From NCBI GenBank assembly GCA_041940025.1, contig JBGTSY010000001.1, positions 19,186 through 83,185 on the forward strand: a DNA stretch of 64,000 nucleotides. Direction: 5' to 3'. Below the pieces are notes generated by a model, which did not search any database, had not been told where the DNA came from, and was given only the letters and a program-made list of their open reading frames with translations. This document shows positions 3,142-58,807 of this stretch, in pieces (the first letter of the stretch is position 1; every line of letters begins with the position of its first letter). Made by a program: the position numbers and the translations under genes. The stretch is from Thiotrichaceae bacterium (GTDB lineage: Bacteria > Pseudomonadota > Gammaproteobacteria > UBA5859).

Positions 3142-3155
3142 AATAATAAAGTAAC

Positions 3156-4520: not shown

Positions 4521-4557
4521 ACTACAACTCTACTTTAAGTCGGTTGGACATGTCTGA

Positions 4558-4947
4558 CTAGTCAGATTCTGTCTGTTCTTGATAGGTTTCTGCATCAAGC
4601 AGATCGTTGACTTCAGCTGGATCGGACGGGTGCAATTTAAACAACCAACCCTCTTCAAAGGGCGATTCATTCACTCGTTCCGGCGCATCTGCCAAGGATT
4701 CATTCACCGCGCAAATTTCTCCAGAAACCGGACTGTACACATCCGAAGCTGCTTTCACGGACTCCACCACGCAACACTCTTCACCGGCAATCACCGCACG
4801 CCCAACGTCAGGTAATTCCACAAATACCAGATCCCCTAACTCACTTTGTGCAAAATCAGATATGCCCACAGTGACGGTACCGTCATCTTCTAACTTTGCC
4901 CACTCATGAGTGGCGGCGTATTTTACCGAATCGGGAAATTGATGCAT
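4558..4947 (-). CDS. gcvH: Glycine cleavage system H protein (lipoyl carrier)
   Basis: 129 aa. Lipoyl-lysine motif context [16 protein letters not shown]. Position between gcvT and gcvP. Confidence 0.92.
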
Positions 4948-4994
4948 GATTTTCTCCTCAAATATCTCGCCCTAGCGATTAGCTGCACTAAAAT

Positions 4995-6095
4995 TTAAGC
5001 GAACTCATTGGAAACTGCTTTTCCCTGCTTCACAAAACAGGGCGCAGTTAATTTAGCCGTTAGTTTCTTATCTCGAATCATCACACCCACTTCACCTTCC
5101 CAATCTACTGGAACCCGTGCCAAGCCAATAGAGAGATTTAAACTGGGTGAAAAAGTACCGCTGGTCACTTCTCCTTCCAGCGGACTGTCACTGACCACTT
5201 TTTGGTGGCTGCGCAACACACCGCGATCCCGCAATATCAATCCGGCTAGTTTATATTTGATCCCCTCATGACGTTGCTTCTCCAGAGCGGCACGACCAAT
5301 AAAATCTCTCTCTTTCGGCTCCCAAGCTACCGTCCATGCAAGATTGGATTCAAGGGGGGAGGTAGTCTCATCCATATCATTACCGTAGAGATTGAGTCCG
5401 GCCTCTAACCTTAAAGTATCTCGCGCACCCAATCCGCAGGGTTGCACACCGGCATCTAGTGCTTGCTGCCAGAGTTGAAGGGCCTCTGCGGCAGGTAAAA
5501 TCACTTCTATCCCCAATTCACCGGTATACCCAGTTGCGGCAACGAATAGATCCGCTGTTTGTAGATGATGAAAAGTCTTCAATGTGGATAAGTGATCTGC
5601 CAGATTGGAAAAAATGGGCAGTTTTTCGGCAATGCTGATCGCTTTCGGACCCTGCAACGCCAACATGCATAGATCCTCGCGTTCGTTTACCGACACTGAA
5701 TAAGCTTCCGCCTGCTCTGACATCCAGGCCAAATCTTTCTCTCGTGTCGCCGCATTAACCACCAATCGATACTGCTTAGGCGCAACATAATAGACGATTA
5801 AGTCGTCCAGAATGCCCCCTTGGCTATTGAGCATACAGCTATAAAGCGCCTGTCCGGGCGTGGTTAATTTGGCCACATTGTTTGCGAGCAACCACTGTAG
5901 ATAGAGATCAGATTGTTCTCCCGTTACGTCCACTACCGTCATATGGGAGACATCAAAAATACCTGCCTCTTGACGTACGGCCCTGTGTTCAACCATTTGC
6001 GAACCATAATGAACAGGCATCTGCCAGCCACCAAATGGCACCATTTTGGCGTCTAGTTGTACATGCTGTGAGTAAAGTGCGGTTTTTTTAACCAT
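4995..6095 (-). CDS. gcvT: Aminomethyltransferase (glycine cleavage T protein)
   Basis: 366 aa. Folate-dependent T-protein hallmarks (GIFDVSHM, GYTGE.G.E). First gene of the gcv operon. Confidence 0.92.
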   Translation of the reverse strand: MVKKTALYSQHVQLDAKMVPFGGWQMPVHYGSQMVEHRAVRQEAGIFDVSHMTVVDVTGEQSDLYLQWLLANNVAKLTTPGQALYSCMLNSQGGILDDLIVYYVAPKQYRLVVNAATREKDLAWMSEQAEAYSVSVNEREDLCMLALQGPKAISIAEKLPIFSNLADHLSTLKTFHHLQTADLFVAATGYTGELGIEVILPAAEALQLWQQALDAGVQPCGLGARDTLRLEAGLNLYGNDMDETTSPLESNLAWTVAWEPKERDFIGRAALEKQRHEGIKYKLAGLILRDRGVLRSHQKVVSDSPLEGEVTSGTFSPSLNLSIGLARVPVDWEGEVGVMIRDKKLTAKLTAPCFVKQGKAVSNEFA

Positions 6096-11261: not shown

Positions 11262-12473
11262 TTATCCGATGCGCATCAATTCAGGCAGCTCTGCCAAAGC
11301 ACCCTCTGCGCGATGCATAAACAGGTGTTTTAGCGGTTGCATGCGATCGGTCAGGTTAAGGCCCAGATTACGCACCGCCTTCACCGATTGACCAGGATGA
11401 CCGAATAGACGTTTAAACCCTTCCATCGCCGCCATAGTGGCCAAATTATCCCCTTTACGCCAACGTTCATAGGCACGCAATGTCGCCAGTGCGCCAATGC
11501 CGCGATGACGCTGTATCGCTGAAGTGATCACTTGTGCCAACGCAGCTGCATCCTTTAAGCCGAGATTTAATCCCTGACCTGCCAAGGGGTGAATGGTATG
11601 AGCCGCGTCACCTATTAGCGCCAATCCTGGCAACACATACTGTTTACTATGGCGTAAATTTAAAGGAAAACTCGCCACTGATGAAATGGGGGACACCTTC
11701 CCCAATTCTATGCCCATGATTTCGGTCAGTTTTTCAGAGAATGCTTCAGGCGACATGGCCACCATCTGACGGGCTTCGTCTTCAGTGTGGCTCCAGACAA
11801 TAGAGCAGATGTTGGCTTCCCCCAGAGGCAGGAAAGCTAAGGGGCCAGTGGGCAAAAACGCTTGGCGCGCCACCTGCTGATGCTCTTTTTCACTCTGCAC
11901 CACAGCTACCACAGCCCTCTGTTCGTATGACCAACCAACTGATTCAATTGAAGTTTGCTGTCGAACCCATGAATTCGCCCCATCGGCCCCTACTATCAAA
12001 TCAGCGCACAGCACACTGTTATCCTGCAAGGTTAAACGCACCCGATTATCGAGCAACTCTAATGATTGCGCCAACGCCGGGCAAAACCAGCGGATAGTGT
12101 CCCTGCTCTCCAATTGATTCGCCAACGCCGCTTGAATGGCCTTGTTCTCAACAATGCTACCCAAATGGGGTTCGGCAATGCTGGCGGCACTGAATTTTAT
12201 TGCACCTGTCGCCCTGTGCTCCCAAACGTGCATGGCATCAAAATGACCACAGCGCTCTGTTGCCAAGCAGCCCGCAGCACCGAGATTTTCCAATAAACGC
12301 TCTGAGCTTCGGTTCAAGGCGGAGATCCGTAACTCATAGGGAGTAGCCAACTGATAATCCTGTGGGCTCGCCTCCACAATGGCTATCTGCAACTCACTCT
12401 CAGCTAATGCATTGGCTAGAGTCAATCCCACCATGCCACCGCCCACGATGATGAGATCAAAATCCTTGCTCAT
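11262..12473 (-). CDS. ubiI: FAD-dependent ubiquinone biosynthesis hydroxylase, UbiH/UbiF/VisC(UbiI) family (by position likely UbiI/VisC)
   Basis: 403 aa. N-terminal FAD GxGxxG (IIVGGGMVG) and C-terminal G-D motif (GDAAH). 4-bp overlap with upstream ubiH as in the E. coli pepP-ubiH-visC arrangement. Confidence 0.72.
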   Translation of the reverse strand: MSKDFDLIIVGGGMVGLTLANALAESELQIAIVEASPQDYQLATPYELRISALNRSSERLLENLGAAGCLATERCGHFDAMHVWEHRATGAIKFSAASIAEPHLGSIVENKAIQAALANQLESRDTIRWFCPALAQSLELLDNRVRLTLQDNSVLCADLIVGADGANSWVRQQTSIESVGWSYEQRAVVAVVQSEKEHQQVARQAFLPTGPLAFLPLGEANICSIVWSHTEDEARQMVAMSPEAFSEKLTEIMGIELGKVSPISSVASFPLNLRHSKQYVLPGLALIGDAAHTIHPLAGQGLNLGLKDAAALAQVITSAIQRHRGIGALATLRAYERWRKGDNLATMAAMEGFKRLFGHPGQSVKAVRNLGLNLTDRMQPLKHLFMHRAEGALAELPELMRIG

Positions 12474-13693
12474 GTTAACGCCACCCCTCTCAATAACTTC
12501 GGTAACTCACCTGCCTGACCCATTGCATGACGGGCAAACAGGCGTTTAATCGGCGGCATGAGATCGAACGCCTGGATGCCCAAGCCGCGACTATTTGCCA
12601 AGAGGCCGAAATCGGTGATAAAAATCTTCGCCAAACTATCTGTAAGCGCCACTATTTTGCGTTGATCTGGCTGGCGCAAGGCGACATATTTGCGAAGCAT
12701 TGCCTCACTGCCTAAGAAACCTTCATTGTGCTGCGTCGATTGCTGAATTAATTCAGCCAGACAAGCCACATCCCTTACTCCCAGATTAAATCCTTGCCCT
12801 GCCACCGGATGCAGACTATTGGCCGCATTGCCTATAAAAAGCGTTCGAGGACGCCTCAACTCAGAGCTGCGCACCAGTCGTAGCGGATAACTCACCCGCT
12901 TGCCAATTTGCGTGAATTCACCTAGTCGGTATCCGAAAATCTTTTGTAATTCAGATAGAAAGATTTGCTCTGGTAATTGCATGCACTCTTCTGCCACTGC
13001 TGCGTCGATCGTCCACACCACCGCGGTCCGTTGCTGACTCATGGGTAACAGCGCCAGCGGCCCATCTGCGGTAAATCGCTCAAAGGCACAATTCTGGTGC
13101 GGCTCTGAGGTGGCAATATTGGTAACCAACGCACGTTGACCATAATCATGAATAGTTTCACCCACCTGCAACATCTGTCGCACTGATGAAGATGCGCCAT
13201 CAGCAGCGACTAACAGACGGCTCACTAATTTTTTACCATCTGCCAATCGAATCTCTGCGGCATCTTCGGTGACTTCGATGTCGGTCACTTTTGCCGGACA
13301 GATAAAGGTCAGATTATCGATCTGAGGTAGACGCTGAATCAATATTTGCCCCAATTTTCGGGTCACCACCACATGCCCTAAGGCATCCACCCCCTCTTCT
13401 GCTGCACTCAAATGTGCCTTACCAAAACGCCCCTGCTCAGATACCAGGATACTGTCTATAGGATTGATTACTTCGGATAGATCAGACCAAATTTGAATCG
13501 CTTCGAACACACGACGAGTACCGCGGCCCAAGGCGATTGCCCGATCATCGAAACTGGGTTGCGCATCGCTGTCATAAGTCACGGCTTCCAGCAAGGCGAT
13601 ACGCAGCGGCAAATGTTCTAGCGCCAATGCCAAGGTGGCACCTATTAAGCCTCCACCGACAATAATCAGATCGAATTCGCTTGTATCAGACAT
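12470..13693 (-). CDS. ubiH: 2-octaprenyl-6-methoxyphenol hydroxylase-like FAD monooxygenase
   Basis: 407 aa. DLIIVGGGLIGA FAD motif and GNAANSLHP. Directly downstream of pepP as in E. coli. Confidence 0.75.
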   Translation of the reverse strand: MSDTSEFDLIIVGGGLIGATLALALEHLPLRIALLEAVTYDSDAQPSFDDRAIALGRGTRRVFEAIQIWSDLSEVINPIDSILVSEQGRFGKAHLSAAEEGVDALGHVVVTRKLGQILIQRLPQIDNLTFICPAKVTDIEVTEDAAEIRLADGKKLVSRLLVAADGASSSVRQMLQVGETIHDYGQRALVTNIATSEPHQNCAFERFTADGPLALLPMSQQRTAVVWTIDAAVAEECMQLPEQIFLSELQKIFGYRLGEFTQIGKRVSYPLRLVRSSELRRPRTLFIGNAANSLHPVAGQGFNLGVRDVACLAELIQQSTQHNEGFLGSEAMLRKYVALRQPDQRKIVALTDSLAKIFITDFGLLANSRGLGIQAFDLMPPIKRLFARHAMGQAGELPKLLRGVALT

Positions 13694-15008
13694 ATTCCCA
13701 GGCAGCCGCCATCAGTTTTTCAATCTCCTTCACGCTCTTTGGGGCATCCTTGGAGAGCACGTCATTACCAGTCCTTGTCACCAGCACATCATCTTCAATG
13801 CGCACACCGATACCCCACCATTTTTTTGCCACCCCTTTGGAGCCAGACGGGATATAGATCCCCGGCTCTACAGTGAGCACCATGCCCGGCTCTAACACAC
13901 GCCAATGCTTGTCTACTTTGTAGTCCCCAACGTCGTGTACATCCATGCCAAGCCAATGGCCAGTGCGATGCATAAAAAATCGTTTGTAACTCTCCTCCCG
14001 CAACGCCTTGGTGAGTGAGGATTTAATAATCCCCAAATCTATCAATCCCTTGGTAATGGTACGCAGCGCCGCGTTATGGGGGTGATTCCAGTGATTGCCT
14101 GGTTTCACCTGGCGAATAGCCGCCAATTGCGCCTTCAGCACGATTTCATAAATCGCTTTTTGTGCGGCTGTAAAGGTGCCATTCACAGGAAAAGTTCTGG
14201 TGATGTCAGAAGCATAGTTATCCAACTCACATCCGGCGTCAATGAGAACTAAATCCCCGTCTTTTAGCGGCATGGAATTATCTGTGTAGTGCAGAATACA
14301 CGCATTTTCGCCGCCGCCCACAATGGGCGTATAAGCCGATGCTTGAGCGCCCCTGACTCTAAATTCGTAGAGAATTTCCGCTTCCAGATGCGCTTCTGAG
14401 ATCCCAGGCTGACACACCTCCATGGCGCGAATGTGGGCCTGGGCGGAAATCTTAGCCGCACGACGCATTTTGCTGATCTCGCTGGGGCTCTTATACAAAC
14501 GTAAATCGTGAGTGAAGGGCTCTAGGGCGATTAACTCAGCAGGCGCGTGTACCCCGGTGCGCACACGCTCTTTGATGGTGTTGAGCCACTCTAACAGTTG
14601 GTGGTCGAAATCCGCTGATTTGCCCATGGTGTAATAAATTCGTTCTTTGTCTTCCAACAAACCGGGTAAAATGTCACCTAGATCTGCAATTGGAAATGCG
14701 TCATCCAACAGAAACGTCTCTACCGCACCCTCTTGACCCGCTCGTGGCCCAATCCACTGTTCCATTTCAGCATCCCGTTCACGACAAAACAGAATAGATT
14801 GAGCATGACGACGGCCTGGAATTAACACTAAAACCGCTTCTGGCTCATCAAAGCCGGTGAGATAATAGAAATCACTATCTTGACGAAATGGATATTCTGC
14901 ATCACGATTACGTATCTGGATCTGTGCAGATGGCAAGATGGCTACTGAATCAGAACCCATCATGCGCATTAATCGTTTCCGCCTTTTAACGAACTCTTGC
15001 ACATTCAT
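13686..15008 (-). CDS. pepP: Xaa-Pro aminopeptidase (aminopeptidase P II)
   Basis: 440 aa. M24B metallopeptidase metal ligands (DAGCE, HGTGHWLGMDVHD, EPG, E.D). Conserved neighbourhood with ubiH. Confidence 0.9.
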   Translation of the reverse strand: MNVQEFVKRRKRLMRMMGSDSVAILPSAQIQIRNRDAEYPFRQDSDFYYLTGFDEPEAVLVLIPGRRHAQSILFCRERDAEMEQWIGPRAGQEGAVETFLLDDAFPIADLGDILPGLLEDKERIYYTMGKSADFDHQLLEWLNTIKERVRTGVHAPAELIALEPFTHDLRLYKSPSEISKMRRAAKISAQAHIRAMEVCQPGISEAHLEAEILYEFRVRGAQASAYTPIVGGGENACILHYTDNSMPLKDGDLVLIDAGCELDNYASDITRTFPVNGTFTAAQKAIYEIVLKAQLAAIRQVKPGNHWNHPHNAALRTITKGLIDLGIIKSSLTKALREESYKRFFMHRTGHWLGMDVHDVGDYKVDKHWRVLEPGMVLTVEPGIYIPSGSKGVAKKWWGIGVRIEDDVLVTRTGNDVLSKDAPKSVKEIEKLMAAAWEYV

Positions 15009-22687: not shown

Positions 22688-23995
22688 ATGGTTCTAATTG
22701 AAAAATACGCTTCCGGCATGCGTGATCTTGCCGCCATGTTCCTGTCGAAAGGGGGTGCGATAGTCGTAGGACTGACTATGCAGTCATTACTCGCCTGGCA
22801 ACTGGGGCCAGCCACAAGAGGGCAATATGCTTTGTGTTTGGTTCTGATTTCAATTTTTTCCACATTATTACTTTTTGGCACCGACTGGAGTACTCGCCAC
22901 TACCTTGCAAAGTGGCAAGACTCCACTAATCGATTAATTACTTTCGCACTTGCATATTGCTGTGTTGCTTGTCTTGCAGCAATAGTGTTGATCCCATTCG
23001 TCTTCCAATTGGACCTAAAATTCTTTGCTCATTTACCATCTGACGTTGTATTACCTACGGTATTCTGGTGCTGTTCCAATATATTTTTCTTGATAAGTTT
23101 TGCAATTCTCGGGGGATTAAGCCAGTTTAGAGTTTTGGCGATTCTTAGTCTTGTAAAACCCACGCTAACGCTATCTCTAGCCACGCTCATGTTGTTTGGT
23201 ACACAGATCCCAGAACTGATTTCTCCCATCTTCGCAGACACCATTTCTGCTTTAACTGTTTCGTCAATAGTTTTAGTTCTGTTAGTACGTTCCATGGCAT
23301 ATCGATGGATGTTTCCAAATGTGCATCTAATCAAAACTCATCTAGATTATTGTCGAAGGTTTTTTCTCGGCTCCTTTGGCATGATCGTAAACGCTCACAT
23401 TAGCCTGATAGTTATAAGTATTTTTATAACAACAGAACAAATTGGATATTTTTCACTAGCATTTGCTTTCTTATCTCAATTAATTTCGATTACTGACGTT
23501 GTGAACAATGTCTTGCAACCTAGAGTCGCTTCCAGCATGGATGGTAGACCTAGACTCATCGCCTTATCCTCCAGAACAGTCAGTAGTGTGGCGATTGTAC
23601 TGGGTGCTTTAATTATCTGGACAGGCGAAAGCTGGATACCATTGCTCTTTTCAGAAAAATTCAATCCAACCTATTCACTGCTAGTATATTTATTACCTGG
23701 CATATGGTTAAGAATGGTAGGTAAAAGCTTATTTCCATATTTTAATGGAATTAATAAACCTGAAATCGTTTCAACTACCACCCTAATCAATCTAAGTGCG
23801 AATATAATATTCCTATTTATTTTGACACCAATATTCGAGCTTAAAGGTGCTGCTGTAGCCATCACTTTAAGTTATGCAATAAGCACCGGATACATAGTTT
23901 CAATCTACTGTAAACTCAATCCAGTATTGAAATGGTCGCTTGCTTTGATTAAACCGGCAGATATTAAGTCTTTATATGATAGTTTGCTAAAATGA
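22688..23995 (+). CDS. wzx: Polysaccharide biosynthesis flippase (Wzx, MOP superfamily)
   Basis: 435 aa. About 12 predicted TM helices. Low-GC codon usage. First gene of the glycan module. Confidence 0.8.
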   Translation: MVLIEKYASGMRDLAAMFLSKGGAIVVGLTMQSLLAWQLGPATRGQYALCLVLISIFSTLLLFGTDWSTRHYLAKWQDSTNRLITFALAYCCVACLAAIVLIPFVFQLDLKFFAHLPSDVVLPTVFWCCSNIFFLISFAILGGLSQFRVLAILSLVKPTLTLSLATLMLFGTQIPELISPIFADTISALTVSSIVLVLLVRSMAYRWMFPNVHLIKTHLDYCRRFFLGSFGMIVNAHISLIVISIFITTEQIGYFSLAFAFLSQLISITDVVNNVLQPRVASSMDGRPRLIALSSRTVSSVAIVLGALIIWTGESWIPLLFSEKFNPTYSLLVYLLPGIWLRMVGKSLFPYFNGINKPEIVSTTTLINLSANIIFLFILTPIFELKGAAVAITLSYAISTGYIVSIYCKLNPVLKWSLALIKPADIKSLYDSLLK

Positions 23996-33888: not shown

Positions 33889-35115
33889 TTACAGACTTCG
33901 ATGATAAGGTAACCATCGGTGCTGATAATTAAATATTATCGCGTGGGCTTCCGCCTCACTGTTTTGATTATTAAACTCTTGGTATCTATATCGATAAGCA
34001 ATTGATAATGTAGATTTTTCAGATTGTCGCCAAGTCAGCCCTGGTTGCAAACTATAATAGTCCCGATCACTAGTGGCAGAGTTATTACTGACTTCCCGAT
34101 TAGTTATCCATTGGACTCGATTGGTCCATGATAATCGCCTACTCAGTCTCCCTTGCTGATTTAAACTGAAAGTATCGGATTCTAAAAATTCTCCACCACC
34201 ACTGGGCCGAGTACTCCGTTGTAACTGCAAACGCAATTGATGAGATAGAAACTCTCTGCTGATCTGCACATTTAACAGGGAACCTTGTTCATCAGACTCA
34301 AATTCCACGGGTGTCACAGTAAAAAAGAAAAAGTTTGGAACCAGGATCACCGTCTTGGTAGTGGTTTCTCGTACGCCCACAGAAAAGTTGTACTCCCAGA
34401 GTTCGTTCAGCGCACCTTGTACGCCCACGGTAATTCCAAGATTTTTAACTTCTTGTTGATTTAATTCAGTTTGATATTGTGAAAGGGACAGTGCGATAAC
34501 CGCTCGATGCGCCGGTCTAAATTGATGATGCCAATCCGTATTCAAATAATAATAGTCATAATCCACCAGTCCGGATTGCGCCGAGTCCGCATAGTCCACC
34601 TGCTGCCCATTTAGTTGCAGAGAGAGCAGATTTAATTCACTGACTGAGTATTGCCCACTCACAAAAGCGGTAGAAACTTCTCGTCGAATCTGATTTTGAA
34701 TCAGTCCGGAAACATCTAATTCGCTCACTAGAGAGGAATCGCGATTATGGCTTAGGCCAAATTGGCTACTGAACGTTGCTTGCTGCCATTGACTGTCGAA
34801 CTGCACCTTCTGGTTATCGTAGTCAAAACCATCCTGCTCTGTATAGTTGCGGGACGCCAATCCCAGACCTAGTTGATGACGCCAAATGGTACTGGAACGC
34901 TTCAGGTTAAGATCAAAATTCAGACTCTGAGTTGAATCTGAGAGCTTATCTGTTTCGGTGAGACGTATATTATCTTGATAATCTGCACCCACCCGACCAT
35001 TGGCATCCACCTGATACAAGGCGCCTAGGAGTGGGCCGTGAAAAAAAAGTGCACATAAAAAAAAAGAAAAAGTGGATAGATATCGCACGGGAGAGCTGCA
35101 CAACATAGTGGCCAT
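33889..35115 (-). CDS. Putative outer-membrane beta-barrel protein associated with the EPS export module
   Basis: 408 aa. Signal peptide, then alternating amphipathic beta-strand-like segments with abundant Y/W/Q/N. Co-located with Wza-like and Wzz-like genes. Confidence 0.55.
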   Translation of the reverse strand: MATMLCSSPVRYLSTFSFFLCALFFHGPLLGALYQVDANGRVGADYQDNIRLTETDKLSDSTQSLNFDLNLKRSSTIWRHQLGLGLASRNYTEQDGFDYDNQKVQFDSQWQQATFSSQFGLSHNRDSSLVSELDVSGLIQNQIRREVSTAFVSGQYSVSELNLLSLQLNGQQVDYADSAQSGLVDYDYYYLNTDWHHQFRPAHRAVIALSLSQYQTELNQQEVKNLGITVGVQGALNELWEYNFSVGVRETTTKTVILVPNFFFFTVTPVEFESDEQGSLLNVQISREFLSHQLRLQLQRSTRPSGGGEFLESDTFSLNQQGRLSRRLSWTNRVQWITNREVSNNSATSDRDYYSLQPGLTWRQSEKSTLSIAYRYRYQEFNNQNSEAEAHAIIFNYQHRWLPYHRSL

Positions 35116-35744
35116 TAAGGCACTATCACCACGTCACCCGCTTTTAACAGCATGTTTTGGTATAAATTTTCCCCGTCCATGACCTCCTTATACTTAAATG
35201 GGAAAACTATCTGCTTGTCTCCATTCCTTCTCAATACTTTGACTTTGTTTGATGAGCCAAAAGCAGTCAGTCCCCCCGCCATACTAAGTGCCTGCATCAC
35301 GTCCACCGGTCGATTGATGAGATAGTCCCCTGGTTTATTTACCTGACCTAACACATAGATGCGATTGCCCAATAGCTGAGTGGCACTGACAGTAATCACG
35401 GGATCGGGAATATACTGCTGCAAGGCTTCCGTTAAGCTCTGCTGCAAGGCTTCGACGGAAAGTCCGCTCGCCATCACCTGTCCCACGAGAGGAAAAGAGA
35501 TAGAGCCATCGGGTAATACCAACACCTCCCGTTGCAGATTTTCTTCCTTCCAAACTGATATCTGTAAGATATCGCCGGGGTGAATCAGATAGTGCTTTCG
35601 AGCCAGATCCTCTGTTACCGAAGATCCTAAAGTGTCGGCTTGAAGCCCAAAAGAGAGACTCAAAAGGAGTAACGGCCCGATTTTCAGAAAATGACTGCAA
35701 GCAAACAACAGCATGTTTTTCATCTGTGGCCTCATTTCCAACAA
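35115..35744 (-). CDS. Polysaccharide export protein (Wza-like Poly_export + SLBB domain, short PEP-CTERM-locus form)
   Basis: 209 aa. Signal peptide. Poly_export motif PGDILQISVW...PDGSISFPLVG and SLBB GQVNKPG. Confidence 0.8.
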   Translation of the reverse strand: MLEMRPQMKNMLLFACSHFLKIGPLLLLSLSFGLQADTLGSSVTEDLARKHYLIHPGDILQISVWKEENLQREVLVLPDGSISFPLVGQVMASGLSVEALQQSLTEALQQYIPDPVITVSATQLLGNRIYVLGQVNKPGDYLINRPVDVMQALSMAGGLTAFGSSNKVKVLRRNGDKQIVFPFKYKEVMDGENLYQNMLLKAGDVVIVP

Positions 35745-36114
35745 AATAGAAGGATTAAATTAGTTGCAGGGTTATTCGCTAATCTGTTCTGTCAGACGTT
35801 CTTTGTGTCACACGCAAGATTGAGTTCAATACCAATCCAGTAATCATGTGTGATTACATTAGATAACATGGTACTACTAATATATTACATTCCGATGTCA
35901 GAAATCCATTGCAAACTTGAAGGATGTCATTGAAATCCATGAATGATGGCGTCCAGACGTCTACCCCTGGAGATCAGAGATTAGGCAACCTGTTGTCCGA
36001 CCAAGCAAGATTAAGAAAAATCTAAGACTAAAGGGAACATGAAATCCGTATAAACCCTAGTTCCCCCAACATGCAAATAGCTCATTAGGTTTTAGTTGTG
36101 GAAACTGATTATGC

Positions 36115-36627
36115 TCACCCGACGGTATTGGTCTCAGGTTGCCTTCTGTGTCCAACTATTAGGAACCCTAACAAGGACGAAAAGAGTAACCAGATACTAG
36201 CTGGAATAGGGATGGCACTAGGATCGCTCAGTAATGAACCTTTAACTGAATAGAGGCCCCAGTCGAACAGTCCCGTATTGGCTTCACCAGTAATAGAAAA
36301 ATCATAGATTCCCGCAGCCAATACGCCGCTAAATGAATAGACTAAACCGTTTCCGGAAGTCGAAGTACTTTCTGTGAGAAATCCTAGTTCAGGAATCACG
36401 TCAAAATTATCAATGGTAGGATAGTTTTCAGTCACCACTGAAAAAGTGAGATCTACTAAGGTAGTTTGAGTCAGATCTAGTGTTCCGATATCAGAAAAAT
36501 CAGAGAAACGTAAATGTAATGAAACCACTCCATTTCCATCATCTTCAATCATGTAAGTAGCGGCATTAGAAAAAGCGGCAACAGAAAAACTCGACACTAA
36601 AAGTAATGCCTGTATAAATTTGTTCAT
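36115..36627 (-). CDS. Secreted protein with C-terminal PEP-CTERM-type sorting signal (IPIPA variant)
   Basis: Signal peptide MNKFIQALLLVSSFSVAAFS. C-terminus ...DPSAIPIPASIWLLFSSLLGFLIVGHRRQ, which is a P-x-P motif, a TM helix and an Arg cluster. Confidence 0.65.
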   Translation of the reverse strand: MNKFIQALLLVSSFSVAAFSNAATYMIEDDGNGVVSLHLRFSDFSDIGTLDLTQTTLVDLTFSVVTENYPTIDNFDVIPELGFLTESTSTSGNGLVYSFSGVLAAGIYDFSITGEANTGLFDWGLYSVKGSLLSDPSAIPIPASIWLLFSSLLGFLIVGHRRQPETNTVG

Positions 36628-37092
36628 TGTAACCATTCCCCAAAAATGTTGAATACAGCACAATTATTAAACATCCAGACAAAATAAATATTACAATGAA
36701 AATACTACTGGGTAAATTAAATACCGCTTAAAAAAATTAATTTCGCAAATAAAAACAAACTCTACTTTTGCAAGTTGATTAATTTGCATGCAATTGGTTA
36801 AGTAATAAACAATCAACCAACTTATATGTGCTGACAAAACAACCCGGAGCAATCGAGAATTTATCTACAACTGTATTGCAATCTAAAAAATGATTGGCAG
36901 AATACGTCATTGCGGATCAGAAAATGACTATAGAAATTGGTGCCAGGATACCAACCATGACTTTCCTATAAGCTTAATATAATCGATCACGCGATTTCTT
37001 TTGTTACTCTTTAGTTAATTTATCTACGCCTCCCCTTCTAAAGCCAACAGGATGTTGGCATTAAATCATTCCGTCTACGGAAGGAGGGATTC

Positions 37093-37746
37093 ATGCTATT
37101 TAAACAATCAAAGTTATCCAATTCGCTTGCACTGATGACGCTACCGGCAAGCATCTCTTTATCGGCCGCAACCATTGAACCAGGGGATTTAATCATTACG
37201 GAAGTGATGGCGAATCCTAAAGCCGTCTCCGATGCAAATGGAGAGTGGTTTGAAATATACAATGCCACCAGCAGTACCCTTAATTTAGCCAACTTAAATT
37301 TATCCGATGATGGTTCTAACAACCATACAGTAGCTAGTGATCCATTAAATCTGGCACCAAACAGTTTCTTCGTATTCGGTCGTAATGGTAATACAACAAC
37401 CAACGGTGGATACACCGCAGATTATGTCTATTCTGGTTTCACACTATCAAACGACAGTGATCAGATCATTCTTAGTCTTGGTGGAATTGTGATTGCACAG
37501 TTGGCCTATACTGGGGGATTCGTAATAAATGGAATCAGCTCTGAGTTAAAAAGTTTACCCAGTCTAGTAAGCAATTTTGGCGGCACACCTGAAGAAGCCA
37601 GTTATCTATTTGGTGATGGTGACTATGGGACGCCAGGCGCCATGAATTCCACGGACTTTACTGCCGTGCCCCTGCCTGCAGCTTTGCCGCAATTGTTATT
37701 GGCCCTGGGTGCACTATTTGGAATTAGGATAAAACAAAAAAGATAA
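37093..37746 (+). CDS. Lamin-tail-domain (LTD) protein with C-terminal VPLPA-CTERM / PEP-CTERM sorting signal
   Basis: 217 aa. LTD signature DLIITEVMANP...NGEWFEIYN...NLSD...FFVFG. C-terminus TAVPLPAALPQLLLALGALFGIRIKQKR. Strong SD GGAGGG upstream. Confidence 0.75.
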   Translation: MLFKQSKLSNSLALMTLPASISLSAATIEPGDLIITEVMANPKAVSDANGEWFEIYNATSSTLNLANLNLSDDGSNNHTVASDPLNLAPNSFFVFGRNGNTTTNGGYTADYVYSGFTLSNDSDQIILSLGGIVIAQLAYTGGFVINGISSELKSLPSLVSNFGGTPEEASYLFGDGDYGTPGAMNSTDFTAVPLPAALPQLLLALGALFGIRIKQKR

Positions 37747-38969: not shown

Positions 38970-39311
38970 CTAAATCTGCAATCTTTCCACGATTTCACCC
39001 TTTAATAAGTGGCGTTCCACTATCTCATCCAGGTCGCTATATTGCTCATAGCGGTACCAAACGGCCTCTGGATAGACCACTAATACAGGACCGTCCACGC
39101 ATCGATCTAAACAACCTGCTTTGTTCACACGGATACGTCCAGGACCAGACTCTCCTAACTTTTTGATTTTATTCTTTATATAATCACGAGCTTGATCCGC
39201 CTGATGGTTCTGACAGCAGGGGCGTCCATCTTCACGAAAATTAGTACAAAAAAAGAGATGATGACGATAGTATGCCACGAGCAAGATCCTTGGCTTGATA
39301 AGAGTGCGCAA
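38970..39311 (-). CDS. Thioredoxin-like [2Fe-2S] ferredoxin family protein
   Basis: 113 aa. Four-Cys pattern C..C (CTNFREDGRPCC) ... C...C (AGCLDRC) with GPVLVVYP. Resembles the NuoE-like thioredoxin-fold ferredoxins. Confidence 0.55.
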   Translation of the reverse strand: MRTLIKPRILLVAYYRHHLFFCTNFREDGRPCCQNHQADQARDYIKNKIKKLGESGPGRIRVNKAGCLDRCVDGPVLVVYPEAVWYRYEQYSDLDEIVERHLLKGEIVERLQI

Positions 39312-39365
39312 TCGTAAATCGTCTAACCAGCCACTTCAAGAGAGGGGTATACCCAAAAAATTTTT

Positions 39366-40592
39366 ATGGCTAAAAATATGGTTATTGACAATGCACTTTT
39401 TTTGAAAACTGAGCAATGTGTGCGCTGTGCCAGTTGCGCACCCAGATGCCCAACATACGCATTGAGCCGCAATGAAGCGGAGTCCCCGCGAGGCCGAATT
39501 ACCATGATCGCCGGACTGGCATCCGGTCAAATTCCGGTCACAGACTCCTTGCAGCAACATCTCGACAATTGCCTCACTTGCCGCGCTTGTGAACAGATTT
39601 GTCCGGCTAAGGTTGAGGTGGGCAGCATTCTCGATCAGGGACGTGCACTGATCCTTGAACAGCAATCGCCAACCTTCTCTCGGCAGCTTTTCAATAAAGT
39701 GCTAGATCTGATCACTGCCTACCCAAAACCAGTGTCCAGATTAGTCAACTTGGTACGCCAGAAATGGATCCGTCGATCTGCACGCTCTGTTGGATTAGAT
39801 CCCTGGATCCGCGCCTTATCTGCAAGCCAACCCATGACGCCCGTGCGCTCAGACAACACTACTGAAGAGGATCTGCACAAATCAGTGCAGCTTTTTACCG
39901 GTTGTCTCGGTGAGGCGATGCAGAGCCACACACTCAATGCTGCAATTTTGTTGCTGAATCACCTGGGATTCAGCGTGCGGATCCCGAAAGAACAGATCTG
40001 TTGCGGCGCCCTTCATCAGCATCGTGGGGAAATGACTCGCGCGAGAACACTCGCCAGAAAAAACCTGGCAGTGTTCTCCGAGCCAGAAATCCCAGTGATC
40101 TATTGCGCGACCGGTTGTGGCGCAACCCTGTCAGAGTATCAATCGGAATCCTCGCAGAATTTTTCTAAGCAACTGTATGAAATCAACGAATTTATTGCTC
40201 AATCCGAAGTAGCGTCCTTAAGCTTCAGGCCACTGCACAAGAAAGTATTAATCCACGATCCTTGCTCCGCCCGCTATCCCCTTCAATGCGCTCATTTCAG
40301 CCAACAGTTACTCAGTCGAATCGAAGGATTGCACATTTATACTTTGGCAAATGATCAACACTGCTGCGGCGCTGCTGGAACTCATATGTTGTCCCATGCA
40401 AAAACAGCACAGACTCTTGCGGCACCAATTGTCGAACAGGCCGTTCGACTACAAGTTGACTATGTTGTGAGTAGTAATGTCGGTTGTGCGCTGCATCTAG
40501 GTGCCAATTTGCCAGACTCTATACATGTGTGTCATCCGGTGGAGCTTTTAGCCATGCAACTCAATGATAAAACTAAATTAGGTGTAGAATAG
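39366..40592 (+). CDS. GlcF-like (Fe-S)-binding protein: two 4Fe-4S ferredoxin motifs plus two CCG (Cys-rich) domains
   Basis: 408 aa. CVRCASCAPRCP and CLTCRACEQICP cluster motifs. CCG motifs ICCGA and HCCGAAGT. Confidence 0.75.
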   Translation: MAKNMVIDNALFLKTEQCVRCASCAPRCPTYALSRNEAESPRGRITMIAGLASGQIPVTDSLQQHLDNCLTCRACEQICPAKVEVGSILDQGRALILEQQSPTFSRQLFNKVLDLITAYPKPVSRLVNLVRQKWIRRSARSVGLDPWIRALSASQPMTPVRSDNTTEEDLHKSVQLFTGCLGEAMQSHTLNAAILLLNHLGFSVRIPKEQICCGALHQHRGEMTRARTLARKNLAVFSEPEIPVIYCATGCGATLSEYQSESSQNFSKQLYEINEFIAQSEVASLSFRPLHKKVLIHDPCSARYPLQCAHFSQQLLSRIEGLHIYTLANDQHCCGAAGTHMLSHAKTAQTLAAPIVEQAVRLQVDYVVSSNVGCALHLGANLPDSIHVCHPVELLAMQLNDKTKLGVE

Positions 40593-40598
40593 AGCCGT

Positions 40599-41240
40599 AT
40601 GCAAAGAAAATATAACTCCACTGACCGATTAGTCATTGCCTTGGATCAAGGTCTACGGACACTCTACGGCAAGCCTGACAATACTGGGCGTGACAGCCCA
40701 GCCCAAGATCTAGCCGAAACAGTTCAGTCGAAAAATGACAAACGCCACGTAGCGGGTTTGATGAGGGTCAATCATGCGGGTGAAATAGCCGCGCAAGCGC
40801 TGTACTACGGCCAGGCACTGACGGCTAAAGACGAAATTACGCGGGCTTCACTGCTGAATACCGCACGTGAAGAGGGCGATCATCTACATTGGTGCCAGCA
40901 ACGCCTAACAGAGTTAAATAGCCATATTAGTTATCTTGGACCTCTATGGTATCTGGGATCTTTAACCATCGGCGCCATGGCCGGTTCACGGGGTGACGCC
41001 TTTAGTTTGGGATTTGTTGCTGAAACAGAACATCAAGTCAGCGCACATTTAAGCAATCATCTACAACGATTACCGCGACAGGACTCCCGTAGCCGTACAA
41101 TCTTATTGCAAATGCAAGAAGACGAAGAAGGCCATGCCACACAGGCGTTACAGTCAGGGGGCAAACGGCTTCCTTGGTTGGTGCGTCGAACCATGAAAAT
41201 GACGGCGAAAGTGATGACCACTCTGGCGTATAGAATTTAA
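40599..41240 (+). CDS. coq7: Demethoxyubiquinol hydroxylase (di-iron Coq7 family)
   Basis: 213 aa. Two E..H di-iron motifs (NHAGEIAAQALY; EEGDHLHW; ETEHQ; EEGHA) of ferritin-like Coq7. 7 bp after the glcF-like gene. Confidence 0.85.
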   Translation: MQRKYNSTDRLVIALDQGLRTLYGKPDNTGRDSPAQDLAETVQSKNDKRHVAGLMRVNHAGEIAAQALYYGQALTAKDEITRASLLNTAREEGDHLHWCQQRLTELNSHISYLGPLWYLGSLTIGAMAGSRGDAFSLGFVAETEHQVSAHLSNHLQRLPRQDSRSRTILLQMQEDEEGHATQALQSGGKRLPWLVRRTMKMTAKVMTTLAYRI

Positions 41241-41260
41241 TGTGTCTGTGAAGCACACAT
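41238..41260. terminator. Hairpin between convergent coq7 and speD (terminator-like)
   Basis: AATGTGT-ctgtgaagc-ACACATT inverted repeat, read directly. Confidence 0.4.
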
Positions 41261-41261
41261 T

Positions 41262-49358: not shown

Positions 49359-49997
49359 TTGTTGCCCTGGAGAATGCCAATGAGCTTCTACGACAAACAT
49401 GTATTACCTCGGTTCATTAATCTAGCTTGCGGTACAAAGCCAATCACTTATCAGCGAAAAAAAGTAGTACCTGAAGCAAGTGGACGAATTTTAGAAATAG
49501 GAATTGGACCAGGACTTAACCTGCCCTACTACGATGCCAACAAAGTAGAAATGGTTTACGGCTTGGAGCCATCGTCAGATATGCGCAAGCTGGCTGCCAA
49601 AAGGGTGAAGCAAGTGCCGTTTAAGGTGGAATTTATCGACTTGCCAGGAGAAGAAATTCCGCTGGAAAATAACTCTGTAGACACGGTGTTATTAACCTAC
49701 ACGCTATGTACTATTCCCGATGGCTTAAGCGCTTTAAAACAAATGCATCGAGTGCTGAAACCGGGAGGCAAATTGATTTTTTGTGAACATGGTGCCGCGC
49801 CCGACGATTCCGTAGAAAAATGGCAAAATCGTATCAACCCTGTTTGGAAACCCATTGCCGGCGGGTGTAATTTAAATCGCAAAATACCCCAATTGATCAC
49901 AGAAGGTGGTTTTAACATTCATAATATGGAAACGGCTTATATCCCCGGCACCCCAAAAATTGCTGCTTATAACTATTGGGGCGCAGCAACGGTGTAA
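49359..49997 (+). CDS. Class I SAM-dependent methyltransferase
   Basis: 212 aa. Motif I ILEIGIGPG and motif post-I/II (VDTVLLTYTL; LKPGGKLIF). Confidence 0.75.
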   Translation: MLPWRMPMSFYDKHVLPRFINLACGTKPITYQRKKVVPEASGRILEIGIGPGLNLPYYDANKVEMVYGLEPSSDMRKLAAKRVKQVPFKVEFIDLPGEEIPLENNSVDTVLLTYTLCTIPDGLSALKQMHRVLKPGGKLIFCEHGAAPDDSVEKWQNRINPVWKPIAGGCNLNRKIPQLITEGGFNIHNMETAYIPGTPKIAAYNYWGAATV

Positions 49998-56314: not shown

Positions 56315-56731
56315 ATGGATCTTAAAGGAAGCAAAACAGAACAAAACCTCAAAGACGCTTTCGCTGGTGAATCTCAAGCAAACAGACGATACCTATACTT
56401 TGCGGCAAAAGCTGATGTGGAAGGCTATAACGACGTGTCTGCGGTATTTCGTTCAACAGCCGAAGGGGAAACTGGACATGCCCACGGACATTTAGAATAT
56501 CTGGAAGCAGTGGGCGATCCGGCCACTGGTTTACCCATTGGTGAAACCGCGAATAATTTAAAGGCAGCCATTGCAGGTGAAACCCATGAATATACGGATA
56601 TGTATCCGGGTATGGCTAAATCTGCTCGTGATGAAGGATTTGACGAAATCGCCGACTGGTTCGAAACTTTAGCAAAAGCCGAGCGATCACACGCCAATCG
56701 ATTCCAAAAAGCTTTGGATTCTCTCGACTAA
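56315..56731 (+). CDS. Rubrerythrin-family di-iron protein (ferritin-like domain only, no rubredoxin domain)
   Basis: 138 aa. Two E...E..H motifs (GESQANRRY; [11 protein letters not shown]; AGETHEY; AERSHANRF). Confidence 0.8.
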
Positions 56732-56813
56732 TTTTTAAGAATCGCGCTCGTTCCTGGGCTGAAGACGATTTTCTTCAGCCCAAACATGATGCAGTTCAAA
56801 ATAAAATAATGAT

Positions 56814-58211
56814 ATGGATCAGAATAACCAAAGCCCCCGCGAAGGCAGTTTGGACGCACCCACTCGACATCCCATAGATTGGCAAAATCCCCAATATTTT
56901 GACGAGCAAGATTTATTTGCAGAGCTAGAGCGCGTGTTCGACATTTGTCATGGTTGCCGCAGATGTTTCAATCTATGCCACTCGTTTCCGCTGTTATTTG
57001 ACGCCATAGATGAGTCAGACTCCGGTGAGCTGGATGGCGTCGACAAATCGGTATATTGGCAGGTAGCCGAACATTGTTATCTGTGTGACATGTGTTTTAT
57101 GAGTAAATGTCCCTATGTGCCTCCCCATGAATGGAACATAGACTTCCCTCATTTAATGTTGCGTACCAAGGCCGTGCGTTTTCAGCAAGGCAAAACAAAA
57201 TTTCGAGACACATTTCTCACTTCCACCGACAACAACGGTAAGAATCTCGCTATCCCGCTGGTGGCGCAAACAGTCAATCATGTGAATCAACAAAAGTTAG
57301 CCAGACAATTGTTGGAAAAAACCATAGGCATTCACCATCAAGCGCCCGTGCCCCCTTACCAGAGCAAACCCTTACGCAAGCGATTGAAAAAGGAGATTTT
57401 GCATTCTCCCGTAGACGCAGAGATATTATCCGCTGAAGAAAAAGAGGCCAGCCCCATTGAGCCCCCCGACGGGGTACGCCCAATTCTCGGGCGGGTTGTG
57501 CTCTTTACTACCTGTTATGGCAACTACAACGAACCCCAGTTTGGAGAAGACTTGGTAGCAGTCTTCAAACACAATGGTATTCTATTGCATCTGCCACAAC
57601 ACGAAGTCTGTTGCGGTATGCCTAAAATGGAGCTGGGTGATCTGCAGTCTGTGCATAAACTGAAAAATCAAAATGTCCCTGAATTGGTAGCTTGGATCCG
57701 AGAGGGATGGGACGTGATCACGCCAGTCCCCTCCTGCACACTGATGTTTAAACAGGAACTACCCTTATTATATAAGGGCGATTGGGAGGTGGAGACTCTG
57801 GCCAGACACGCCTTTGATCCCTTTGAATATTTGGCCCTATGGCACAAAAAGGGGCAACTGAACACCGAGTTCAAACATCCTTTGGGTAAAATCGCCTATC
57901 ATGTGCCTTGCCATTTACGCGTTCAAAACATTGGCTTGAAAACCAAAGAGGTGTTGTCCTTAGTACCAAATACCGAAGTGCAAGCCATTGAGCGCTGTTC
58001 CGGCCACAATGGCACCTATGCGGTCAAAAAAGAGACTCACGAACTTTCTGTGAAAATTGGTAAACCTGTCGCCAATCGCATTCAGAAAGTGGAAGCGGAT
58101 CACTATGGTAGCGACTGTCCGATGGCGGGCCGCCAATTGCAACATATCCTGCAAGCTGACACGCCGGCGGAGCATCCTATGAGCTTGTTACGACTCGCCT
58201 ACGGGATATAA
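56814..58211 (+). CDS. HdrD/GlpC-like Fe-S oxidoreductase: 4Fe-4S dicluster domain + two CCG domains
   Basis: 465 aa. CHGCRRCFNLC and CYLCDMCFMSKCP cluster motifs. CCG motifs VCCGMP and VPCH...C. Confidence 0.75.
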   Translation: MDQNNQSPREGSLDAPTRHPIDWQNPQYFDEQDLFAELERVFDICHGCRRCFNLCHSFPLLFDAIDESDSGELDGVDKSVYWQVAEHCYLCDMCFMSKCPYVPPHEWNIDFPHLMLRTKAVRFQQGKTKFRDTFLTSTDNNGKNLAIPLVAQTVNHVNQQKLARQLLEKTIGIHHQAPVPPYQSKPLRKRLKKEILHSPVDAEILSAEEKEASPIEPPDGVRPILGRVVLFTTCYGNYNEPQFGEDLVAVFKHNGILLHLPQHEVCCGMPKMELGDLQSVHKLKNQNVPELVAWIREGWDVITPVPSCTLMFKQELPLLYKGDWEVETLARHAFDPFEYLALWHKKGQLNTEFKHPLGKIAYHVPCHLRVQNIGLKTKEVLSLVPNTEVQAIERCSGHNGTYAVKKETHELSVKIGKPVANRIQKVEADHYGSDCPMAGRQLQHILQADTPAEHPMSLLRLAYGI

Positions 58212-58219
58212 TCTCAATT

Positions 58220-58807
58220 ATGGATCCACTAACTAAGTCCGATCTGTTTACTCTGGAACGCTATGCTGAGGTTCGACCTGAATTTCGGCAAAAAGTCCTG
58301 GCCCATAAAAAGCAACGTCATGTGGCCATTGGCAATCATCTGTCACTCTATTTTGAAGATCGCCTCACCATTCAATATCAAATACAAGAGATGTTACGAA
58401 CAGAGCGGATTTTTGAGGTCGCCGCCATTCAGGAAGAGCTAGATGCCTATAATCCATTGATTCCCGATGGACAAAACTTAAAAGCCACAATGATGTTGGA
58501 ATACAGTGATGTGGAGGACCGCAAAGCGGCACTGGAGAAACTCATTGGCGTGGAAGATAAGATTTGGTTACAGCTCGGCAATCATGAAAAAATTTACGCC
58601 ATCGCCGATGAAGATCTAGAACGAGAAAACGAACAAAAAACCTCAGCCGTACATTTCTTAAGATTCCAATTGGATGATGAATCCTATCACGCATTCAAAA
58701 ATCATGAGGCACTTGTATTTGGTTGTGACCATGAACAGATGTTTGAACACGCCCCCATAGAGTCAGAAGCCACTTACCAGTCCTTACTTGCTGATTTGGC
58801 GCCATAA
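58220..58807 (+). CDS. Conserved hypothetical protein (DUF3501-like by recollection)
   Basis: 195 aa acidic soluble protein. 8 bp after the CCG oxidoreductase. Family assignment is from memory of this protein and gene-neighbourhood type, not from a search. Confidence 0.5.
   Translation: MDPLTKSDLFTLERYAEVRPEFRQKVLAHKKQRHVAIGNHLSLYFEDRLTIQYQIQEMLRTERIFEVAAIQEELDAYNPLIPDGQNLKATMMLEYSDVEDRKAALEKLIGVEDKIWLQLGNHEKIYAIADEDLERENEQKTSAVHFLRFQLDDESYHAFKNHEALVFGCDHEQMFEHAPIESEATYQSLLADLAP

Follow-up and report, generated by a model that had tools for sequence, protein, structure and literature searches.

Introduction

Ubiquinone ring hydroxylases such as the eukaryotic enzymes COQ7 and Coq6 need two electrons per turnover, a demand shared by Coq7, the di-iron demethoxyubiquinone (DMQ) C6-hydroxylase of bacteria. 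Coq6 requires a dedicated iron-sulfur (Fe-S) ferredoxin couple (Yah1/Arh1, FDX2/FDXR) (PMC7615680). Neither of its partners, an adrenodoxin-type [2Fe-2S] ferredoxin and a flavoprotein, is related to CCG proteins. Animal COQ7, working with NADH and COQ9, has no Fe-S partner; NADH reduces it by way of the quinone substrate, and this reduction is slow (kcat 1.2 per min; PMC7615680). For bacterial Coq7, no defined electron donor was found in the literature that we searched. A further arrangement has been put forward for the di-iron protein rubrerythrin, where RFO, a COG0247/CCG protein, is proposed to replace a lost rubredoxin domain and to supply the di-iron site with electrons (Cardenas, Quatrini & Holmes 2016; PMC5114695). 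Here we describe a locus at positions 39366..41240 of a 64-kb stretch of DNA from a Thiotrichaceae bacterium (referred to, at its full length, as the window), in which the gene for a GlcF-like Fe-S protein with two CCG domains directly precedes coq7.

The Fe-S protein is of a known kind (COG0247/CCG), and what is new is the subfamily to which it belongs, the separation of this subfamily from the glycolate dehydrogenase subunit GlcF, and its conserved coupling to coq7. No description was found in the literature of Coq7 paired with GlcF, with a CCG/heterodisulfide reductase protein or with another Fe-S partner, or of such a gene neighborhood, in agreement with the initial annotation of the window, which had called the arrangement undescribed for bacterial Coq7. 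The large genomic surveys of ubiquinone hydroxylases were carried out without gene-neighborhood analysis (PMC5069965, PMC10597321). The two-gene unit is a concrete, testable candidate for the re-reduction of the bacterial Coq7 di-iron center at each turnover, and we tentatively favor the reading that the GlcF-like protein may be an accessory electron-transfer partner of Coq7.

Organization of the locus

The two genes, the divergent ferredoxin gene and the region between them are arranged as follows.

38970..39278, minus strand: thioredoxin-like [2Fe-2S] ferredoxin, 102 aa, with a corrected GTG start; divergent from the GlcF-like gene, and of uncertain membership in the module
39279..39365, no strand: divergent intergenic region of 87 bp between the ferredoxin and GlcF-like genes, presumed to hold a bidirectional promoter
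39366..40592, plus strand: class A GlcF-like Fe-S protein (class A is defined below), 408 aa, with Pfam Fer4_8 and two CCG domains
40599..41240, plus strand: Coq7, di-iron demethoxyubiquinone (C6) hydroxylase, 213 aa (NF033656, PF03232)

The GlcF-like gene ends in a TAG stop at 40590-40592 that is separated by a 6-nt spacer from the coq7 ATG at 40599, which bears out its earlier placement directly before coq7. A terminator scan found no terminator-like site between the two genes, and they are presumably co-transcribed. In the 87-bp divergent region, a consensus scan gave no sigma-70-like match, and FNR, CRP, Fur, IscR, OxyR and ArcA boxes were not present; across 48 orthologous regions upstream of class A genes, FNR/ANR, CRP, Fur, IscR, OxyR and ArcA boxes were not enriched relative to shuffled controls. 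No transmembrane segment was found in the ferredoxin, the GlcF-like protein or Coq7, and the maximum Kyte-Doolittle score over 19 residues in the GlcF-like protein is 1.07. On the far side of coq7, the 21-nt gap (41241..41261) that separates it from the convergent speD gene is filled by a short inverted repeat, TGTGT...ACACA, for which the terminator scan gave no score.

Coq7 scores 278 bits against NF033656 (cutoff 180) and 131 bits against PF03232, and its di-iron ligands E62, E92, H95, E144, E176 and H179 are invariant among 21 homologues. The N-terminal part of the GlcF-like protein carries two CxxCxxCxxxCP [4Fe-4S] motifs (C18-C28 and C69-C79), and its C-terminal part contains two CCG domains (C180/C212/C213/C251 and C300/C333/C334/C374), which match PF02754 in two stretches with 82.8 bits; the architecture is that of an HdrC-HdrB-type fusion. 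As the C18-C28 motif is kept in relatives, the 408-residue reading from 39366 is supported. A public gene call for this gene (P0001, 362 aa; L175:113-1201, from DNA that is 100% identical to the window over 1,450 bp) begins at an internal ATG and thereby loses the first [4Fe-4S] motif.

A subfamily of Fe-S proteins distinct from GlcF

A search of 5.8 billion proteins returned two close relatives of the window Fe-S protein (95% and 71% identity), followed by a broad set at ~40% identity whose members, where named, are called '(Fe-S)-binding protein' or 'glycolate oxidase iron-sulfur subunit'. An alignment-based scan of one genome per species provided 80 loci, the closest from a named genome being that of Thiotrichaceae bacterium UBA5859 (71% identity for class A); they were scored by tblastn with the Coq7, ferredoxin, SpeD and RplM proteins of the window and with E. 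coli GlcD, GlcE and GlcF. Proteins closer to the window protein than to E. coli GlcF are referred to as class A, and those closer to E. coli GlcF as class B. The hosts of class A are gammaproteobacterial (Thiotrichaceae, Methylococcaceae, Chromatiales, Acidiferrobacteraceae, Sedimenticola, Xanthomonadales and Nevskiales) and betaproteobacterial (Nitrosomonas and Nitrosospira), and the class B proteins come from other phyla.

The best NCBIfam match of the window protein is GlcF itself (NF008434, 187 bits), with which it shares two CxxCxxCxxxCP motifs, two CCG domains and a length of about 400 aa, and all 16 cluster-binding cysteines are conserved in both classes. Class A could on these grounds be the true GlcF subunit of a dehydrogenase for glycolate or a D-2-hydroxyacid, with GlcD and GlcE encoded elsewhere in the genome. 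Such a split glcDEF would also suit the many class A hosts that are Calvin-cycle autotrophs and need phosphoglycolate salvage, and canonical glcDEF genes do occur in the rplM-coq7 neighborhood of loci L096 and L124. The scores, however, argue otherwise. The equivalog cutoff of NF008434 is 333 bits, and the window protein together with five other class A proteins spans 140-239 bits, which is lower than the GlcFs of distant phyla that are encoded beside glcDE (303-331) and well below the proteobacterial glcDEF-linked GlcFs (535-538). In a neighbor-joining tree, calculated without bootstrap, class A forms a clade apart, whereas E. coli GlcF falls with class B, as do the glcD/glcE-linked gammaproteobacterial GlcFs of L096 and L124. 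Class A has also lost a signature of canonical GlcF located just past the first cysteine of the second CCG domain, where the near-invariant residues H, H, Q and P (window positions 301, 304, 306 and 312) are not retained.

The gene neighborhoods point the same way. GlcD or GlcE was found within 3 kb of class A in 0 of 49 non-redundant loci, whereas it is adjacent to the canonical GlcF in 28 of 34 class B loci, and tblastn with the E. coli GlcD and GlcE queries gave no match at E<=1e-5 in the 64-kb window; the initial annotation, which had described a GlcF-like protein lacking both subunits, was correct in this respect. What lies downstream of class A is coq7 instead, and the pair is also present in the heterotrophs Rhodanobacter and Dokdonella. 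The sole GlcD-like matches near class A genes (L036, L047 and L101) were rejected as free GlcD, as they are part of a self-contained ~1,280-aa YdiJ-like fusion with its own CCG module. This fusion (L047, about 2180-6024, minus strand; also L036 and L101) joins a DUF3683-like N-terminus, a GlcD-like FAD oxidase, two [4Fe-4S] motifs and two CCG domains, and in these three class A loci it lies upstream of the rpsI-rplM block. Taken together, we consider a split glcDEF very unlikely.

The closest solved relatives of class A lie among other CCG proteins. A sequence profile search of the PDB matched HdrB, HdrC and mycobacterial EtfD, and an AlphaFold2 model of class A (predicted local distance difference test score, pLDDT, 87.6) was matched by Foldseek to LutA, EtfD (TMq 0.66) and HdrB. 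Because of the GlcF scores, the separate clade, the lost signature residues and these fold relatives, class A is a paralogous, previously unnamed subfamily of the GlcF/GlpC/HdrCB (COG0247/CCG) Fe-S proteins rather than a relocated GlcF. The relationship to HdrB and HdrC, the closest solved relatives by sequence, and the fully conserved CCG cysteine pattern would also be compatible with an HdrB-like thiol/disulfide reductase, in which the non-cubane CCG clusters reduce a small-molecule or protein disulfide. Hdr enzymes carry out heterodisulfide reduction together with HdrA, whereas no HdrA, other Hdr-type partner or thiol-metabolism gene was present in the neighborhoods examined, and relatives of the same architecture (GlcF, GlpC and EtfD) transfer electrons to or from quinone-linked systems. 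A disulfide reductase is accordingly improbable, and both it and the split glcDEF are less likely than a role with Coq7 or an oxidoreductase role independent of Coq7, which are weighed below.

Mycobacterial EtfD (PDB 9ojn) and the HdrBC modules share a common fold and cofactor-binding module with class A. In EtfD, two CCG and two [4Fe-4S] clusters are arranged in line as an electron wire that leads from a soluble partner towards quinone (PMC13083937). EtfD differs in that it has a haem b-bearing membrane domain of five helices and that its C-terminal region is long; class A, which lacks any transmembrane segment, would need another route to the membrane or to quinone.

The distinction sets thousands of proteins labeled 'glycolate oxidase iron-sulfur subunit' or '(Fe-S)-binding protein' apart from true GlcF, and it matters for the reconstruction of phosphoglycolate salvage in chemolithoautotrophs. 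A literature search on glcDEF in Nitrosomonas returned matches that dealt with Cupriavidus and Comamonas instead. As a separate observation, the canonical glcDEF genes mentioned above (L096, about 3260-5830; L124, about 1460-2700) were found at two of 80 loci collected by Coq7 similarity. In L096 they fill the very slot that separates rplM from coq7, with their genes on the opposite strand. Their position could hint at the origin of a GlcF paralogue in this place, or it could be a coincidence.

Class A genes are recurrently paired with coq7

Among 47 non-redundant class A loci with sufficient downstream DNA, coq7 follows on the same strand within 300 bp in 34 and within 3 kb in 37, whereas it is adjacent to none of the 34 class B genes. 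The initial annotation had named uniqueness to one genome as a ground for refutation; the arrangement in the window instead recurs in Gammaproteobacteria and Nitrosomonadales, and its cultured hosts include Nitrosomonas, Nitrosospira and Rhodanobacter. In some of the ~40% relatives, genes unrelated to the pair are inserted between class A and coq7, which then lies 1.6-2.4 kb downstream (L004-L007, L014).

The most telling case is that of the Nitrosomonadales. In 11 loci of the Nitrosomonas/Nitrosospira type, the class A-coq7 pair is constant and the flanks vary between genera: upstream are found rimM-trmD-rplS, a GDT1-like gene or others, and downstream yqgE-ruvX-pyrR-pyrB, osmC or others. The genes rplM, speD and the ferredoxin gene, which border the pair in Gammaproteobacteria, are all absent from these 11 loci. 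Since the pair persists with all of its flanks changed, passive synteny is not what would be expected to hold it together.

The reverse comparison started from coq7. Eighty metagenomic loci were picked solely by Coq7 similarity (47-57% identity), and 53 of them have at least 1.5 kb of upstream sequence. Clustering of the neighbors at all 80 loci identified class A as the commonest neighbor of coq7 (22 loci), followed by the ferredoxin (16), Crp/Vfr (15), SpeD (12), RplM (11) and OsmC (10), and it revealed no substitute redox protein at coq7 loci that lack class A. A higher count of 35 Coq7 loci with a GlcF-like neighbor, obtained by single-linkage clustering, was rejected, as the extra members were spurious antisense open reading frames; the count is 22 plus the two canonical cases. 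The pairing of class A with coq7 thus recurs in many Gamma- and Betaproteobacteria, yet the class A protein is clearly not indispensable.

Resemblance to the rubrerythrin-RFO system

A complete, aerobic-type example of the rubrerythrin system is encoded in the window itself.

56315..58807, plus strand: rubrerythrin-RFO-DUF3501 cluster, complete and aerobic-type

The cluster contains a 138-aa rubrerythrin (PF02915, 105 bits), a 465-aa GlpC-like CCG protein that corresponds to RFO, and a DUF3501 protein (238 bits). The RFO of the window scores 226 bits against the GlpC model (under the cutoff of 278) and 35 bits against the GlcF model, and its second CCG motif reads C-S-G rather than C-C-G.

Both arrangements place a ferritin-like di-iron protein beside a COG0247 CCG Fe-S protein, and in both the association is inferred from gene neighborhood. 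They differ in several respects. Class A is GlcF-like and is 18% identical to the window RFO, in the CCG region only, as distant paralogues would be; the di-iron partner is a peroxidase in the rubrerythrin-RFO system and a hydroxylase in the case of Coq7; and DUF3501, a part of the rubrerythrin-RFO system, is not adjacent to class A. Moreover, rubrerythrin, RFO and DUF3501 co-occur almost exclusively, whereas the association of class A with Coq7 is looser. The locus at 39366..41240 is therefore not a member of the rubrerythrin-RFO-DUF3501 system, and the likeness is one of design. Because Coq7 belongs to the same ferritin-like superfamily and class A and RFO are distant paralogues, class A and Coq7 may by analogy represent a second instance of that design. 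If the redox link proved true, it would parallel rubrerythrin-RFO and hint that ferritin-like di-iron enzymes are repeatedly supplied with electrons in this manner.

Possible role of class A in Coq7 turnover

Comparative evidence suggests that class A may be an accessory electron-transfer partner of Coq7, although several observations speak against an obligatory role. As a soluble or peripheral protein with two [4Fe-4S] clusters of the cubane type and two clusters of the CCG type, class A would form a four-cluster electron wire, fed by the quinol pool or by a small ferredoxin. It could pass single electrons to the carboxylate-bridged di-iron center of Coq7, or it could act on the quinone/quinol form of DMQ. 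Re-reduction of the di-iron center would then be faster than with NADH alone, which is slow in the animal enzyme, and Coq7 turnover would be improved without class A being required. In this scheme the donor, the course taken by the electrons and any contact between class A and Coq7 are inferred.

In the main rival reading, class A serves as a housekeeping Fe-S oxidoreductase that works independently of Coq7 (for example, coupling the quinone pool to a small ferredoxin or to some unlinked dehydrogenase) and that stays beside coq7 through operon or synteny inertia; we hold this to be possible, if doubtful. Under it, the survival of the Nitrosomonadales pair after every flank has changed would be hard to explain, as would the closely spaced, same-strand arrangement seen at 34 of 47 loci and the rank of class A as the single commonest coq7 neighbor; in addition, no other recurrent partner of class A was found within 10 kb.

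A substantial set of observations nevertheless weighs against a partnership with Coq7, and many of them are what the independent oxidoreductase would lead one to expect. In the Gammaproteobacteria, the pair is part of an old and conserved syntenic block, rpsI-rplM-fdx | classA-coq7 | speD-glyoxalase-osmC-crp, that has undergone modular losses. As the region is such a block, and as speD, which has no known functional tie to coq7, is also a frequent neighbor of it (12 of 80 loci), adjacency within the Gammaproteobacteria says little by itself. In the reverse comparison, class A is adjacent to coq7 in 14 of the 53 loci with sufficient upstream sequence and lies within 3 kb in one more (15/53, ~28%), so that many Coq7 genes have no class A neighbor. 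Among the remaining loci, six have no class A but carry the ferredoxin gene in direct divergent orientation to coq7, five have rplM directly upstream, two have canonical glcDEF nearby, and 25 have none of these.

Conversely, class A is kept without coq7 in 10 of 47 loci, and the coq7-less loci that keep the divergent ferredoxin include L015, L036, L048, L021 and L041. In Methylobacter, class A (L018:1457-2662; L032:9983-12067) lies directly beside speD-osmC-crp with the coq7 slot empty, as if excised, and the order to which this genus belongs, the Methylococcales, is reported to be without Coq7 and to use UbiF (PMC10597321). In L112 and L121, coq7 is inverted in place and convergent with class A, and the order of fdx, rplM and speD is unchanged. 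There is no class A-Coq7 fusion among 56 same-strand pairs, and no residue separates the Coq7 proteins that have a class A neighbor (n=60) from those that do not (n=38), as might be looked for if Coq7 bore partner-specific residues.

Coq7 also functions alone. Complementation of E. coli dubiF was obtained with Coq7 by itself from P. aeruginosa, A. ferrooxidans and R. rubrum and with most of 20 further Coq7s, and some of these enzymes bring the strain to near wild-type levels of ubiquinone-8 (UQ8) (PMC5069965, PMC10597321). The ferredoxin likewise fits poorly into a fixed electron-delivery unit. It is absent from the class A-coq7 pairs of Nitrosomonadales and Xanthomonadales, and it occurs with no coq7 nearby in Sulfurimicrobium lacus and a Burkholderiales metagenome-assembled genome (MAG), where it heads an ABC-2 transporter operon, and in Sulfuricella, where it stands alone. 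To our knowledge, E. coli has no class A protein. Because the ferredoxin's association with Coq7 is confined to one gammaproteobacterial syntenic block, its link to Coq7 is weak. Finally, the function of RFO, on which the analogy draws, is itself a prediction.

The initial annotation had proposed a dedicated Fe-S electron-delivery module for the Coq7 step. The conserved pairing and the published rubrerythrin-RFO analogue agree with electron delivery, whereas 'dedicated' overstates the case: class A accompanies ~28% of the Coq7 loci, Coq7 works by itself, Methylobacter keeps class A, the ferredoxin belongs to one block, and Coq7s with and without class A are indistinguishable. The reading of class A as an accessory partner of Coq7 accommodates these facts best in our view, and we put it forward with corresponding reserve. 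A more ambitious version, which appears rather unlikely, would make class A the physiological reductase of bacterial Coq7, connecting the di-iron center to the quinol pool or to a small ferredoxin, and would add a new accessory factor to aerobic ubiquinone biosynthesis. Were it true, it would, together with RFO, point to a general rule by which COG0247/CCG proteins are dedicated donors for ferritin-like di-iron enzymes in aerobic bacteria.

Two further observations concern the gene pair. A MAG labeled Methylococcaceae (L011) has a class A gene that is still followed by coq7. In L134, what looked like a 656-aa fusion of class A with Coq7 proved spurious, as an in-frame stop lies between the two genes.

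The divergent ferredoxin

The ferredoxin gene reported in the initial annotation is real, and its start at 39311 was not kept. The relatives of the protein are 102 aa long and the database contains an identical (100%) 102-aa protein (P0241), so the start is almost certainly the GTG at 39278 and not the TTG at 39311; the divergent intergenic region therefore measures 87 bp. The protein scores under the family cutoffs, with 18.2 bits against Pfam 2Fe-2S_thioredx (PF01257; cutoff 24.8) and, against the NCBIfam models (NF041612/NF041613), 67 bits for fdxn_Clost with its cutoff of 150 and 51 bits for a cutoff of 195. Residues C11, C21/C22, C56 and C60 are invariant in 20 homologues and fit the four-cysteine pattern C-x(10-12)-C ... 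C-x3-C. The protein is highly conserved, with 62-69% identity into the Betaproteobacteria, and at 21 of 47 class A loci its gene is found no more than 400 bp upstream of the class A gene.

The ferredoxin-ABC-2 operons encode ABC_tran and ABC2_membrane proteins with overlapping stop and start codons, and they are found in S. lacus (L169:6001-8011), in the Burkholderiales MAG (L171:6001-9896) and in a gammaproteobacterial MAG (L004:5908-7916). In S. lacus, ubiE-ubiJ-ubiB is located ~3 kb upstream of the ferredoxin-transporter operon.

Other ubiquinone genes and features of the window

The window contains a pepP-ubiH-ubiI operon (11262..15008). The presence of UbiH and UbiI, also part of the initial annotation, holds firmly for UbiH (12470..13693), which scores 460 bits against a cutoff of 384; the UbiI-like hydroxylase (11262..12473) passes only the cutoff of the UbiH/UbiF/VisC/COQ6 subfamily. 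A 212-aa class I S-adenosylmethionine (SAM) methyltransferase encoded at 49359..49997 on the plus strand shows weak UbiE/COQ5 similarity (53 bits against a cutoff of 216) and is not a confident ubiquinone gene.

Two further regions were also noted. The segment 22001..30000 has a low G+C fraction (0.38-0.39, compared with about 0.46-0.50 elsewhere) and includes a gene of the Polysacc_synt family (22688..23995); the segment probably represents an island for polysaccharide biosynthesis that was gained by horizontal transfer. The region 33889..37746 includes a polysaccharide export gene (35115..35744) and two genes for small secreted proteins with PEP-CTERM-like C-termini, one at 36115..36663 on the minus strand and the other, an LTD-domain protein, at 37093..37746 on the plus strand. 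In the closest relative (L001), the genes of this region likewise border the rpsI-rplM-fdx block.

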